A DNA stretch of 63,946 bases, filler included, from Neolecta irregularis DAH-3 (GCA_001929475.1; 8 parts of 8 records of this genome joined end to end with filler, not necessarily neighbours in it), one strand, 5' to 3'; shown: positions 1,549 through 8,337, counted from the whole stretch's first letter. Program-made: numbers and translations. The notes: generated by a model not told the origin, from the sequence alone.

Positions 1549-3311
1549 ATGCTCCACCAGGTACCCAACTCTAATTGTACGCTGTCGAAACCGCCGCAGA
1601 TCGCACCGGCACAATTATACGAGACAGAAAGCGGCCGGTATGTGTTTTGCATGACTGCTAGAGCTCACCCACCAGACTTTTCCACGCCGGACGAATTGCC
1701 ATCTGCACAGGCATCTTGATCTTGTTCTGCCGCTAATACTCAGTCGGACTTCCCGCTCGAGGAAAAACGCACATCTCTGTCTCGCTCTGTCGGTATCTAC
1801 GATGGTATCGTCCGCGTTTCCGCGCTTCCCTGTATGACATTCCAGGCTCGGTGTCAAAACTGCAGTCTTCCATCTCGGCGACTATCGACGGGTCGTGTTA
1901 GAAGGCCAAGAATTACCTCCAGACTTCTTCTTCGTAAACACATCTGAGTCAACTACCAAACTCCGTGAAAATATCCGTGACCTATGCAGAAACGACATGA
2001 AAAAGTTTTATGAACAAGATAATGGACAAGTGGCCATTTACGATGCCGTAAATCCATCCGTCAAGGGACGCAAAAATCTAGTCAATTTCTTTCAAGCACA
2101 TAATGCCCAGGTTACCTTTTCTTCTTTTTTGTAAACTTGATAATTTACCAGGTTCTCTTCATCGAGTCGATTTGCGATAACGAGAAAATTATCGAAGCTA
2201 ATGTCCTCAGTGTCAAAATTTCATCACCAGATGTATATCTTTCTCTATTTTGGCGTCTGATTCGGCAAAGTATGTTGGTTGGCAACCTAAAGATGCGGTC
2301 AAAGATTACCTGCAACGGATTAATAACAAGATTCCTTATTTTGAGACAATCAAGGAGCCTGAATTGAATTATGTAAAGGTATACATCTTTATTTTGGTGT
2401 TTGCCAACTGTTTGTAGATAATTAATGTCAATGAACGGATGATTGTAAATAACCACCAAGCTGGATATCTTTGGGTAATTAATTCCTTGGTTGGGACGCG
2501 GTTACCCAATAGTCACGTATCGTTTTTTACTTGATGAATTTACATACTCAATATCGCAAACTCTACTTTGCGAGAGCAGGTAATTCTGAGGAGGAAAGCT
2601 CGTATAAAGCGGATACGCCACTAGACCTCCAGGGTCAGGAGTTTTCCCGTAGGTTAATGGCAACTCTGGTTGCGCACAGAAAAAAGGAACGACAAGATGC
2701 TTTATCCCAAGGCGACAATTCAGACGAACGAAGCCTTTCTGTTAGTATTTCTTTGTTGCTCCCAGTTGATTCTTAGATTTGGACATCTCCTAGAATAAAA
2801 AGCGTCCAAACAGCAGACGCTCTTAAAGAACAGGGATATAAAGTGCGCCAACGGCCGCAGTTAATGCCACTTAATCCCGGGGTACTGGAAATGATGACTC
2901 GCGAACAAGTCCGTGAAAAGTACCCTGAAGAAGTCGAGAAACATAAAAAGGACCCGTATCATCATCGTTTTCCCCGAGCCGAAGTAATTGCAATCATCAT
3001 CATCAAACCTGACAAATAGAGTTATCATGATGTTGCGGTTCGTCTTGAACCCGTGATTCTAGAAATGGAACGATCGTACGATGATTTACTGATAATTGCA
3101 CATGAAAGTGTATTGAGAGTATTATATGCATATTTGATGGGTGTCCCTGCAGATGTAATTACTATTCCCCAGATTAGCAAATTTTCGACTGACCAAGATA
3201 ATCTAGTCCATCCCGCAACTTGAATTTCCCCGAAATCAAATCATTGAAGTTATTCCGAACGCTTATCAAAATCAAGTGAAACATATATACATTGAAGGAG
3301 TCGACCCATGA
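1549..3311 (+). CDS. 6-phosphofructo-2-kinase/fructose-2,6-bisphosphatase family protein, YLR345W-like (about 12 exons)
   Basis: Spliced reading APAQLYETESGRLFHAGRIAICTVGLPARGKT (P-loop), QVAIYDAVN, SRIVFYLMNLH, HRFPRAESYHDV, IIAHESVLR; includes the GC-AG intron 1711-1743. Confidence 0.9.
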
Positions 3312-3361
3312 ATTCTCATTTGTATAGTCCAGTTACTTTTTATCTTTTTTGTTTTGCTTAA

Positions 3362-4374
3362 TTAATAATCGTCACGATGATGACGGTGTCGACTGCTTTT
3401 TTGTTGTTGTCTGGCTTCAGGAGAGTAATCTCTTTTGCGTTCGCGATGTTGTCGATGTGGGTCCTCTTGACGGGATGATTGATAGTAATCTTGGGATCTT
3501 GACTGTTTTTTCTCTCGAGTGTCGTCGTCTCGGGGTCGTTTCTCTCTATTTCCCTCGTCCCTGTGCCTTCTCTCTCGGCTATCGTCTCTATGCCTTCCCA
3601 CTCGGCTGTCACCATGGTGCATTCTCCCTCGATCGTCGTCCTTGTGTATTCTCTCCCGACTGTCATCTCGGTATCTTCTTCCTCGAGTGTCGTCCATATA
3701 CCTTCTGTCCTGATTGTCGTCGTCCCTTCTGCGTGAGCGTCTTTCTTTCTCGTCCCGTCGGGAATATTCAAGACCGCCTAATCCACCTCGAGTTCCATCT
3801 TGCCGTTCCGTCAATTCAGACTCGTCGATATTTTGTATGCGGTACCTGTGAAGTCCTCTACTTGTGATCAGTCATCTTGACGTCAACAGAATTACCCATG
3901 AAACCCCAATCCTTGGTTATCTTCTTCCTTCAACGTTTCATTTTCTAGGTCATCGTCTTTTTCTGTAGTCTTTATAGCTTTTGCAATTTCCTCTTGATCC
4001 ACGTTCCCTTCTTTCTTCCGGGTAACTTTAAACCCTCTACGAAATCAGTTTTGAGGGTCGCGAAATATGGATACAATGCTTCAGCGAGCGCATCTTCTTC
4101 CGCCTCCTTAATCTTTCGGATTTCTTCTCTTCGGATTTCTTCCTTGGAAAGATTGCCATCTTTTTTTTTATTAAACCATTCTAAATCCTTGCCTTTTTGC
4201 CAGCGTCCCATGGGTGCTTTGAGCTAGTCTCATCAACATTCGATAAACACAACTGGGGAATACCGAATGACCCAGGTAATTCTCACGATGTTTATCTTCT
4301 TTAATATCATCCCATTTGAATAATCCTTGGCCGCCGCGGTTCCCTCCCCGAACAGGCCCTTGTCGGAGATCCAT
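3362..4374 (-). CDS. MMTAG2/C1orf35-like protein (MMtag domain plus R/D/E/H-rich tail)
   Basis: [45 protein letters not shown] is the MMtag signature; 3 GT-AG introns. Confidence 0.88.
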
Positions 4375-4453
4375 TTGGTGGGTTGTAGTCAAAAGTCTCG
4401 CCAACTCGTGATGCAAAGATGTTTGTCTGCACCTCTCTACTTACAAACATGCT

Positions 4454-7299
4454 CTAATACTTTTCAGCCATGATCATGATCACCATTGAAGTCCACCCAG
4501 TGAATGGAAAGCTTCTTTGCCCTCTGCCAGTTTCTTGGTCATATTGTTCCCAGGCAAACCCCGTCCTCTCCCACTCATTAAAAATATTCTGAATCACGTT
4601 TTCCCTCAGTTCATTGTAAATCCTACTCGCAGTTTCGCGAAATGGCCCGTCTACGTCTATATAATTTTTCTTCAAACTCGACAAGGCGAGGAAATTAATG
4701 TTTATCCACACTGGACCTCTCCAGTAATTTTCACCCTGGGAAAAATGAGGGTCCTTTTTGGAGAGAGATCGCAGACCATAGGGGGACCAGATTTCCTCTG
4801 GATCGGACATGAATAACAAGATTGCCCCGAGATGGGGAGAATCTGCAGGCAAGAGGCCAAGAAGCATGGGAAAGAGTGAGAGGTAGCCTTTGTGACAAAC
4901 GAGGATGCTTTCTTCATATTCATCGATAGTTGAATCGCAATATGCCTGATCTTTTTCACTCCAATGAAGGTCTTACTATCAGCAAAAATATCCAGCAAGG
5001 ACAAATATTCAAACCATCGATATTTCGGATAATACTTTCTTCGATCTTTTTAAATTCCTCAACGTCGTCGCTTTGTCCCAATTTTTCAGCAATACGCATC
5101 AACATACGTGTAAACATTCCCATCCAGCTGATTAAATCGACGTGAAGTTCACCGATATGTGGGGGCTTGGCACGCGGGTAATCATCCAGGCCACTTGTAA
5201 AACAATGGTCTGGTGTTCTTCCACGCCATCGATATCCCTCCTTCAAACTAAACGCCTCTCGCTCCCAAGTTCTGATGTCGCCGATCTGTGATTTGCGGAA
5301 CCAATAGTAATGCTGTTTTAATTTTGGGTAGAGGGATTGCAAATATTCAGTAGCAAGGACGGGGTATTTGATATGTGCTGAAGATAGCGTCGACCATGGA
5401 ATCTGAGATTCCTCAAGAACTTGCTGACGTGAAGATTCAAACTCTTTTAGAAATCAGAACCCGATATAATGCAGGGAAATACCATATTCCATGGCCTGCT
5501 TTTCTTCTTTTTCTTTTTCTGCTTCATCGAGTTGTTGAAGGAATTGATTGACGGCCAAAATCAGCGTAGGCGGATTCGCATAATGGGGATATTGAATTTG
5601 AAATTCCGGCGGGACTTTACTTCTGGCTTCTTCACCCAGTATTTGTTCCCTCGCAATCCAACCATCTTGGTCCATCAATCCGAACCAACTCTTAATGATC
5701 TCCAAACTAATAATTAGGATTCAATGGTAATTCTACCCAAGGGAAAAAAACCTCAAATCAATGTCCCATAAACCAATAGGCAACAAATGGAATCCTTCAT
5801 CCCAATAAAACCCCCTTGGAAAGAACGGCCTCGAAGGAATACTCGTGAATAATTCCTTCTCTTCCGCTCGTTTACTGTCGCCTCCATCAACTCCTTCCCC
5901 AGCTCTTGCCTGCTCCCAAAATTCTTCTTCTTCGTCATCGTCAATAATCTTACCAACAAGGGAATCTCCGTGAAAATATCCGATTCCGCCAATTAGATTT
6001 GAAAAAAGAGATTGTGCGAATTGGCGGTAGGAAAGTGACGTATATGGTTCCTTCAACGGAAATGTTTTCTCAAAATGGTCTTTGAATGAGAAATCAAGAT
6101 GCTCAAGCTGGTTATCGAGGCGTTTAGCTATAAATTAAATCGAGACAGGTAGAGCATAACTTACAAGTCATACGTTGCTCGCCAAACGAGAGTGAACTGT
6201 ACAGAATATCAAACTAGTAAAAGCGATTAGTGGATCGGCAAGGAGAAAGAAGATACTTGAAACGAGCCCTGAAATGTCTTTTGTGTGAAGTGGAGATTAG
6301 CAAGGGGGTCTTTTTTGTTAGGAAGAGTGTATAGGATTGCAGCGGGCGGTAGTTTTTCCTTTCCATATCGTTTTTCAAGTCTTTGGAAGACAAAAGATAT
6401 CTCTGAGAATAAGAGATCTAATTTCTCAGCATGAGCAGCAGGAAAGCAGATACCCTTGGCCTTCCAAATGACGTTCCCGGGTACTTGTATTGAGGCAAAT
6501 TGCGTGTTTTGCAAGTTGACAAGCTTGGAACTGTCGTGTTGGGGTTGCGGGTACTTGTTACTATCAGGGCCTGTAGTGATTTCAAACGAAAAGTCTCCAA
6601 GTATAGGAGCCGATCCGACGATTTCCACGGGTCCCTCGATACCCTTTCTCATCAACTGGGATACCAACGCAAAGAGGCAACATTGGAGTTACCAGCAGAT
6701 GTAATTTCGAGATTTCCTAAGCCTTCTAGACCGGCGTAGAAAAACACAGTCGTTTTGCGATGGTGGGATAAAGGGTTAAAAAATATCGTACAGAGAGGGA
6801 ATACCATTATCTCGAGGTGTTCCACGGACCCTAAGCGCCCAATGGCCTCCTGAATTGGTTGGCAACCACATGAGTAAAGATGAGATACCTCTAGATCCAC
6901 CAGAAACTTTGACAAATTCAGTTTCAATATCAACACCCATTCCTACATCTCGGATCCTCTGTATTCCCCCTGTTCTCGGATCAAATTCGTCCCATCCATA
7001 GCCCAGGATATCATGACTCTGTTCACAAGTATGTCGAATGTCTAGGTCTGATCAATACGAGACTCAATCTGCACTGTACCGTTAATGCTTCCCATGTCGT
7101 CAACATTGGCCCACATTATTCCAGTCAACAGGCTTTTGGGAATTCGGGGGCGGAAGCCTGCGTATAACTGAGGGCGATAGGGACCCCATAGCAACGAATC
7201 GTTTTGTGCCTTGGCGACTGCAGACAACAATGACTCTGTGGACAAATGCTGCTGAGCTATCACAAGGGCCGAGAACAACAAAACCCAGATGCAACTCAT
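4454..7299 (-). CDS. CWH41: Mannosyl-oligosaccharide glucosidase I (GH63)
   Basis: SLLWGPYRPQLY, LFTSIPSRPFFPRGFYWDEGFH, GWIAREQILGEEARSKVP, SGLDDYPR, ENYWRGPVW, FTGWT; about 10 introns, one ending in AT (6804-6768). Confidence 0.95.
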
Positions 7300-7510
7300 C
7301 CGACTGGCAATCAATGATGGAAAGATGTCAAGTTTCTGTACCAGGTCTCACAAACGAAAATCGCGGGCTGGAACAAGAAAGTAAAAGGGCTAGAACATGC
7401 AGAGTATAGTTAATGTATACTGTGAAATATGAAATGTGTATAAAAGGCGGAGAAAGTGGGGGGTTGCTCAATTGTGTCTCGGTCCAAGAATCACCCAACA
7501 ATAACCGGTT

Positions 7511-8337
7511 ATGTCGGCGGACGCCCCCTCGACCCCACTATCCTCTCTCTGTACTCCATCCTCTTTTTTAGACTATAAAGACTCATCATATCCAGCCTTT
7601 ACACATATTTATTACAATCCTGAAGATCCTGTTTCTCTTGCCTTGGCATGGTTGTCGTTACTCCCGATGGTGCTTTTGGTCATTTACGCGACGTTGTGTT
7701 ATTCACGGCGCGAAGTAGAGTATTTTTTCGTAATGGGCGGACAATTGGTTTGCGAATGTTTGAACTGGGGATTAAAAAGACTGATTAAGGAGAGCCGGCC
7801 CAAGCGTATGAATTTCTTTTCCCTCGATTGTGTTGATTGGGCAGCGATGATAGGGAAGGGATATGGAATGCCAAGTAGCCATGCACAGTTTATGACGTAC
7901 ATTGCAGTTTACTTTTCGTTATGGATTTCGGTGAAGTATGCTAGCAACGTAGAAGGTTCAGGATGACAGGGGCAGGTCGTCCAGATCGGTTCCTCGCAAA
8001 GTCATCGATGTGTCGATTGCGCTAGTGGCTGCGGGGATGGTTTGTTGGTCACGGTATGATCTTTGTATGGCGGGCTGACAGGAGAATCTATCTCAGTTAC
8101 CATACACCCAAACAAGTAATTGCGGGAGCAACAGCAGGGGCACTGTTTGGATGGATGTGGTATATGGTAGTACAAGCAACTCGCAGTGTCGGGCTTGTGG
8201 ATTTGGTTCTCTCTCGTTCGTTGGCAAAGACGTTGCTCATTAAAGATATGATACAGCATCGGGATGCGATAAAGGAAGAGTGGCTTGAGTTTCAGAGATA
8301 TCGAAGATCTCAAAAGCCCAGGAATCTGCGGATATAG
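7511..8337 (+). CDS. CAX4: Dolichyldiphosphatase (PAP2 family)
   Basis: LKRLIKESRP, GYGMPSSHAQF and SRIYLSYHT PAP2 motifs with hydrophobic segments; 4 introns. Confidence 0.92.

Follow-up and report, generated by a model that had tools for sequence, protein, structure and literature searches.

An intron of the glucosidase I gene of Neolecta irregularis that ends in AT, and its possible relation to an altered Prp18 loop

Introduction

In the active site of the spliceosome, the first and the last G of an intron pair with each other. In Saccharomyces cerevisiae without Prp18, BG and HAU acceptors are activated, CAU and UAU are the best-used sites lacking a terminal G, and poly(U) promotes their use (PMC10711555). 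Deletion of the Prp18 loop (S187-I211) alone increased the use of CAU and AUG in the two genes tested, and both Prp18 and Slu7 are reported to be dispensable at short distances between branch point and acceptor (PMC10711555). In the yeast structure, this loop passes through Prp8 to the acceptor bases -3/-4, while A-2 forms a pair with the branch A, and G-1 does so with the first intron G (bioRxiv 10.1101/212811). The role of the conserved loop is described again in PMC8022279.

The intron of Neolecta irregularis described here resembles the yeast system in its UAU acceptor, its U-rich sequence, its closeness to the branch point and the apparent use of the major spliceosome, and two further ends in this genome, CUG and UGG, are BG sites also named for yeast without Prp18 (PMC10711555). 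In the yeast mutant, such sites are minor, cryptic and in competition with AG, whereas in Neolecta the site gives the cDNA form in a wild organism and is needed by the protein. Furthermore, Prp18 is absent or loop-deleted in the mutant, but present and naturally altered in Neolecta (PMC10711555).

GT-AT ends are a rare class known from both spliceosomes (PMC1557818). U2-type examples that share these ends with Neolecta have been reported for DGCR2 of human and mouse (PMC1557818), for 14 Drosophila introns (PMC4528330) and for Ganoderma. Each of the 14 Drosophila introns is accompanied by a similar alternative splice (PMC4528330), whereas Neolecta has no AG that would keep the protein, and in comparison with the 18 GT-AT introns of Ganoderma lingzhi (PMC11590231) Neolecta offers a candidate trans-acting cause. 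U12-type GT-AT introns (PMC1557818) have the same end dinucleotides and a loosely similar branch region. Unlike in those cases, minor snRNAs were not found in Neolecta, the donor is not U12-type, and the orthologous introns are U2-type. The human U2-dependent TG 3' splice sites also combine a non-AG end with the major spliceosome, but they are described as alternative sites that keep G at -1 and change -2, and the AT of Neolecta is the reverse (PMC2374985). In Fritillaria tunicates, parts of the spliceosome changed alongside the intron ends, as is suspected for Neolecta, but 95% of their introns escape GT/AG, compared with well under a few percent in Neolecta (PMC13326754). The Fritillaria changes, a duplicated U2AF and altered snRNA methylation, concern first-step recognition; in contrast, a second-step factor is suspected in Neolecta, where one U2AF35-like gene was seen (PMC13326754).

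A search of the open-access literature, judged by titles and the starts of abstracts, revealed no paper on Neolecta splice sites. What is new is that a conserved gene has an apparently obligatory GT-AT intron, shown by cDNA, and that its genome combines this with other putative non-AG ends and an altered fidelity factor.

Results

Excision of the intron from the glucosidase I transcript

The window, i.e., the whole stretch of DNA that was analyzed (63,946 nt, filler included), contains the glucosidase I gene CWH41 (Table 1). The locus is present in a single copy in the assembly G000 (14.18 Mb, 4542 contigs), six of six CWH41 exon pieces matched the Pfam families Glyco_hydro_63N / Glyco_hydro_63, and the homologue search returned a public gene model, P0001, named Neolecta irregularis glucosidase.

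Table 1. Coordinates of the glucosidase I features (window positions) and of two further introns with non-AG ends
Feature	Position	Strand	Basis or remark
Intron 3 of glucosidase I (CWH41/MOGS, GH63), 37 nt, phase 1, GT..AT	6768..6804	-	cDNA joint, unchanged DNA, blind model
Donor GTATTC	6799..6804	-	ordinary donor type in Neolecta; 18/910 predicted introns
Six-T run ahead of branch motif	6778..6783	-	sequence
Predicted branch motif TTAAC, branch A at 6776	6775..6779	-	motif shared by 37/910 predicted introns
Acceptor TAT (HAU class), 8 nt past predicted branch A	6768..6770	-	cDNA joint and sequence
Exon 3, 45 nt	6805..6849	-	cDNA
Exon 4, 86 nt, with conserved hydrophobic stretch of the GH63 N-terminal domain	6682..6767	-	cDNA and homologues
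First downstream AG, in frame (79-nt intron)	6726..6727	-	used by public model P0001; cDNA differs
Entire CWH41 coding region, 11 exons, 2451 nt, 816 aa	4454..7299	-	RNA-supported introns removed
Putative 37-nt GT..CTG intron, Aro8-like aminotransferase	L187:3220-3184 (G000:C3348)	minus	homology
Putative 38-nt GT..TGG intron, DEAD-box helicase	L171:928-891 (G000:C2803)	minus	homology

Two sequencing runs, X1 and X2, were compared with positions 3300-8300 of the window. The DNA run X1 gave a single contig across the whole 5 kb at a depth of 420, with no differing letter and no indel. Also at base 6768, where a C on the plus strand had been considered possible, it shows only the letter of the window. 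As X1 may be the source of the window, it rules out an assembly slip, but does not represent an independent individual. Run X2 is cDNA despite its label 'DNA?', as the introns are missing from it and none of its joints occurs in X1. It contains 17 joints, 15 of which were shown, namely 14 GT-AG introns of 31–45 nt and one GT..AT intron. At the latter joint (6767>6805, depth 133.7), 37 nt are skipped that have the ends AT..AC on the plus strand and GT..AT on the minus strand. The joint cannot slide by a single letter, and its short side comprises 44 letters. The coordinates of the X2 record sum exactly (684 = 684), so that no additional letters fit in, and a bin depth of 73.6 was seen, compared to 73.7 expected if the spliced contig alone is present. 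Taken together, the X2 joint and the coordinate arithmetic show that the removal of positions 6768-6804 from the transcript is precise. The GT-AT intron of CWH41 is thus real and confirmed to be cut out exactly at these positions. Its removal is apparently constitutive; X2 is one run that is available as contigs, which lose rarer forms and make only the joints of spliced molecules visible.

It would be extremely improbable that the joint is an artefact of reverse transcription or assembly or reflects a non-spliceosomal cut. It does come from a single run and a single contig, but the intron has no end repeats (slide 0) and no stable fold (-1.1 kcal/mol), its donor, branch motif, length and distance are normal, the frame is restored, and the codon position is the same as that of spliceosomal introns in other fungi. 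In addition, the intron 6804-6768 was chosen blind in both runs of a gene model that was neutral among non-AG ends. It is quite improbable, too, that the AT is a variant or an error of the DNA sample and that the individual behind the RNA carried an ordinary TAG. X1 may have been the source of the window, the sample of X2 (S2) carries another organism label and another sample code than S1, and the intron letters of S2 are not visible in spliced contigs. Against this, X1 shows no other letter at a depth of 420, and the X2 exons are identical to the window throughout the 5 kb, including a junction that is one codon short.

The sequence-only reading from which the analysis started had described this layout correctly, with the donor GT from 6804, TTAAC at 6779-6775 and TAT at 6770-6768. 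The in-frame TAA that the unspliced upstream frame was said to meet is present, no AG precedes the conserved stretch (the first one is found only at 6727-6726), and the cDNA has the proposed 37-nt GT..AT intron, with the frame restored and no other exon structure. Only the distance needs a qualification: counted from where the TTAAC motif stops, the TAT ends at 7 nt, as claimed, but counted from the predicted branch A it ends at 8 nt.

The need of the protein for this cut was evident from the alternatives. When the RNA-supported introns are taken out, i.e., the nine shown introns together with intron 1, which was positioned by coordinate arithmetic, the CWH41 frame has no internal stop over 816 aa. 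In-frame AGs downstream at 6726, 6723 and 6717 would make introns of 79, 82 or 88 nt. They were rejected as acceptors, as at least 14 residues including the conserved stretch would be lost and the cDNA form differs. P0001 takes the first of these AGs and lacks 14 residues, including columns that are kept in 100–103 of 119 homologues. The protein of the cDNA form aligns without this loss. Its junction loop is one residue short, with 17 residues in Neolecta; 115 of 119 homologues have 18 there, and no homologue has 17. The residue at the split codon is Ala in 101 of 115 homologues, and the next one is Pro (68) or Ser (25). A frameshift or a retained intron without splicing is ruled out by the cDNA joint. 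A-to-I editing was also rejected; the terminal T is not convertible to G, and editing of the branch TAA would lead to an out-of-frame end.

The model P0001 also merges glucosidase I with a downstream gene for an MMtag-domain protein (window 4427-4460 and 3361-4454, minus strand). Record 3 of X2 spans 4406-4876 unbroken, through the stop codon at 4454-4456, and the joining intron of P0001 is retained in it. The two look like separate genes.

The spliceosome that removes the intron

The minor snRNAs U11, U12, U4atac and U6atac had no match in G000 at E<=1 (filtered search, 40–50 candidates scored for each), while the search detected the major snRNAs U2 (twice) and U6 (once, with a normal ACAGAGA box). 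A scan of the window with Rfam gave no match. The U6 gene (L202:269-417 minus, G000:C1963) is itself split by a 44-nt GT-AG intron of spliceosomal type after the ACAGAGA region; the U6 gene of fission yeast likewise carries an intron after this region.

The donor of the GT-AT intron differs from the U12 donor RTATCCT at 2 of 7 positions and has T, not C, at +5; 8 of 15 neighbouring GT-AG donors match the U12 heptamer equally well or better, and GTATCC opens just 14 of 910 predicted introns. Among 16 introns, this one has the branch region most similar to TCCTTAAC, with 2 mismatches compared with 3–5 in the others. This motif is at the same time a common U2 motif in Neolecta. The loose likeness to U12 signals that had been noted is not supported for the donor, and for the branch region it is shared with an ordinary motif of this genome.

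Two types of acceptor had been proposed from the sequence, a minor-type one and one defined by the distance from the branch. The idea of a U12-type intron with non-canonical GT-AT ends can draw on the seven such cases of this known U12 class in human and mouse (PMC1557818), on the branch region, and on the division of G000 into 4542 contigs with only 40–50 candidates scored per RNA. It is opposed by the failure to find the four minor snRNAs in a search that did find U2 and an intron-split U6, by the donor without a C at +5, by the rarity of GTATCC, by the U2-type orthologous introns, and by two surveys in which the minor spliceosome is absent from Ascomycota (PMC10639083, PMC2396436). The U12 reading is largely refuted, and we regard it as very improbable. 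Donor class, branch motif, length and distance (with a predicted branch point) are usual for Neolecta. The intron is very probably a real U2-type intron and, as it lacks the terminal AG, is filed under the non-canonical U2-type class.

Distance of the acceptor from the branch point

Branch points were predicted by a simple rule in 16 introns with RNA support. These introns end 6–13 nt past the predicted branch A, most often at 8 nt (5/16), and 7 of 15 neighbouring GT-AG introns pass over an AG that starts 2–6 nt beyond it. The GT-AT intron has the highest pyrimidine (0.73) and U (0.49) content of the 16. A self-trained gene model, seeded with the 15 RNA-supported introns, was applied to 678 kb of G000 (22 contigs and the window), and it predicted ab initio 910 AG-ending introns with a median length of 37 nt. 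Among these predictions, 834 of 910 have a distance of 6–10 nt from the branch A, with the mode at 8 nt (267). The base at -3 was predicted to be T in 460, C in 255, A in 163 and G in 32 of the 910. AG introns end in AAG or GAG in 4 of the 15 cases with RNA support and in 195 of the 910 predicted ones, counts that stem from Neolecta alone. The -3 position, which the Prp18 loop normally adjoins, appears to be loose in Neolecta.

Several further properties of the introns were observed. The donors predicted ab initio in the 678 kb are degenerate (G at +5 in 43%, T at +4 in 50%), and about 7% of the predicted introns start with GC. One RNA-supported intron of 31 nt, at window 8054-8084 (plus strand), ends in GAG.

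The TAT of CWH41 occupies exactly the place of a TAG. The nearby alternative in-frame ends are CTT (distance 5) and CCC (distance 11). Since the TAT lies 8 nt past the predicted branch A, the commonest distance in the genome, the end of the GT-AT intron is likely to be defined by its position. The second of the two proposals, an acceptor defined by its distance from the branch, is therefore favoured, and the neighbouring introns that pass over near AGs agree with it.

Further introns with non-AG ends

In a scan of the same 678 kb for non-AG introns, the gene model was allowed to use any terminal dinucleotide for a flat penalty. Run one had the stricter penalty, and run two was confined to strong signals and introns of at most 50 nt. 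In run one, 10 of 924 introns were non-AG, including 6804-6768; the nine others show no excess of in-frame BG or HAT ends. A frame-controlled test of BG/HAT enrichment was negative, with 1 BG, 1 HAT and 18 other ends in frame and 9 BG, 2 AG and 29 other ends out of frame. Run two gave 8 non-AG introns among 937, i.e., the CWH41 intron, a GT..CTG intron, a GT..TGG intron, four introns with AG alternatives, and one that was discarded as false because it represents the end of a P450 gene.

The predicted GT..CTG intron splits the conserved DDPY-Y motif of an Aro8-like aminotransferase; the exons around it are exactly one residue apart in three of three Aro8 structures, and the AG alternatives cost at least 9 residues. 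The predicted GT..TGG intron in the DEAD-box helicase gene is located at a GG doublet and collinear with Pfam DEAD and two Has1 chains; AG-ending alternatives of 29–35 nt exist. Homology supports both as putative non-AG introns. A possible second GT-AT intron of 37 nt was noticed in an APC5-like gene (L146:6872-6908 plus, G000:C164). Its donor is strong, and so is its branch motif; a CAG that follows 12 nt later scores equally well, and the candidate yielded no structure match.

Thus, at least 3 of 937 predicted introns (0.3%, a lower bound) are seemingly obligatory non-AG introns. In Drosophila, 54 non-AG ends were reported for about 60,000 introns, 52 of them with a similar alternative splice (PMC4528330). 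The 18 GT-AT introns of Ganoderma lingzhi amount to 0.02%, and fungal classes of non-AG ends ordinarily to about 0.02–0.05% each (PMC11590231). It is rather likely that Neolecta has a genome-wide tolerance of non-AG ends beyond the ordinary fungal background.

The conserved loop of Prp18

Prp18 is encoded at one locus in G000 (L005:1203-1493 minus, G000:C702). Compared with yeast, the loop has kept its length of 25 residues, but the residues are altered, as is the start of helix 5. For comparison, 147 homologous matches were retrieved from 1.84 billion representatives; the counts leave aside the Neolecta protein, a repeat that is unrelated and a sequence that could not be anchored but has the W. 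The set is ranked by likeness, and very diverged proteins would be missing from it. All 144 anchored homologues have W in the column of yeast W193, where Neolecta has N, with a codon that differs at all three bases, and in a second search W was present in 31 of 31 named Prp18 homologues. Elsewhere in the loop, N190 is replaced by H (found in 0/144 homologues), position 199 is I (0/143), H203 is replaced by K (2/131) and R205 by K (1/128); four further columns were fixed by the alignment anchor. Altogether, 7 of 16 conserved loop columns are off consensus in Neolecta, compared with at most 2 in 87 of 91 full-domain homologues. Another homologue, P0260, also differs at 7 loop columns, yet it has retained the W. 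Outside the loop, the Neolecta protein differs at 6 of 28 conserved columns, a number reached by 12 of 91 homologues, and three of these six changes, including the D223 position, directly follow the loop. In the relatives Saitoella and Pneumocystis, the loop is intact.

Other factors close to the acceptor appeared ordinary. The alpha-finger of Prp8 is close to human in the region compared and the ACAGAGA box of U6 is normal, so that a change of Prp8 or U6 was rejected as the cause. A U2AF35-like gene with an ordinary first zinc finger is present, and so is Slu7, one exon of which was aligned to human without a clear anomaly. Besides intact pieces of Prp8 on C2136 and C2538, the genome contains several broken partial copies (L032, L034, L035, L036, L038, L039).

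The GT-AT acceptor is an HAU site (TAT) in the strongest U context of the 16 introns. From the coincidence of two oddities in one genome, we infer a link between the intron and Prp18, and a change of the loop could be a cause of the relaxed acceptor, with odds slightly below even. Alternatively, the CWH41 end might be an isolated, tolerated mutation, with an ordinary spliceosome that uses the TAT by distance, no AG being in reach, and with the Prp18 change unrelated or a by-product. In agreement with this, a low proportion of GT-AT introns is known from organisms with normal spliceosomes (PMC1557818, PMC4528330, PMC11590231), the branch distances of the predicted introns are tightly distributed, run one showed no BG/HAT enrichment, and Prp18 is described as dispensable at short distances (PMC10711555). 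Four observations speak against it. A similar alternative splice exists for each of the 14 GT-AT introns of Drosophila (PMC4528330), but no AG preserves the protein in CWH41. At least 3 of 937 predicted introns look like obligatory non-AG introns. The classes of these three introns (HAU, BG and BG) are those freed by the loss of Prp18. Lastly, Pneumocystis introns are short, and Pneumocystis nevertheless retains the Prp18 loop. On balance, we consider an isolated mutation unlikely.

Orthologous introns

Among 80 orthologous metagenome loci, none of which was seen to come from a close relative of Neolecta, 75 could be placed. Of these, 69 are intronless at the codon in question and 6 have a phase-1 GT-AG intron there. 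The six loci represent four distinct sequences from about three lineages, and the donors of their introns are GTAAC or GTAGG, i.e., U2-type. The comparison with MOGS/CWH41 orthologues that the sequence-only reading had recommended gave the same intron position in these six loci, with ordinary ends in all of them. Because U2-type GT-AG orthologues exist at the same codon and minor snRNAs were not found, the CWH41 intron would be an old U2-type intron that lost its AG. A single deletion of 3 nt over the old junction of AG and exon, removing the last G and the first two exon bases, could have created the AT end. It would account at once for the AT end and for the residue that is missing, and we somewhat favour this origin. 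A plain change from G to T together with a separate loss of a codon fits too, and the locus L059, which has TAG followed by CC, is compatible with it.

Discussion

The AT end is present in the genomic DNA, exactly the 37 nt of the intron are absent from the cDNA, and an intact glucosidase I results. The explanation that we propose is an intron of the U2 spliceosome with a TAT end that is set by its position and accepted through relaxed proofreading via the Prp18 loop, and that descends from an old GT-AG intron; as a whole, we give it a probability of roughly 0.6. The tiny intron would be defined by U1 and U2, and the first step would be carried by the U-rich body and the branch motif and would dispense with an AG. 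As the genome has a U2AF35 whose first zinc finger looks ordinary, this AG independence of the first step is an assumption. The cut would then be placed 6–10 nt beyond the branch A. Within this distance, the TAT would be the sole site to retain an A at -2, which in the yeast structure is the partner of the branch A, and its U would substitute for G opposite the first intron G, in a pairing that Roy et al. propose for HAU sites. Relaxed second-step proofreading could bring about a genome-wide tolerance of such ends, and the most likely route to this relaxation would be the conserved Prp18 loop, which is degenerate in Neolecta and whose yeast counterpart reaches into the active site next to the acceptor.

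The altered loop could also be a consequence. Because Prp18 and Slu7 are dispensable at short distances between branch point and acceptor, the decay of the loop may have come after the shrinkage of the introns rather than before; in either order, a drop in fidelity could have resulted. Tentatively, Neolecta could be regarded as the natural counterpart of the yeast prp18 loop deletion, with ends set by distance and constitutive BG/HAU acceptors in tens to hundreds of conserved genes.

One practical consequence is that public gene models of Neolecta are wrong at such acceptors, as exemplified by P0001 with its loss of 14 residues and its gene fusion. It is a standing question whether AG is kept almost without exception through chemistry or through proofreading. 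Neolecta makes this question testable, as one of its housekeeping genes depends on an AT end and its Prp18 loop has changed at positions that are otherwise constant between fungi and animals. If the explanation is true, Neolecta would be the first lineage known to us in which a relaxed acceptor code is linked to a change of a fidelity factor of the second step, and it may thus represent a natural case of relaxed proofreading of intron ends.
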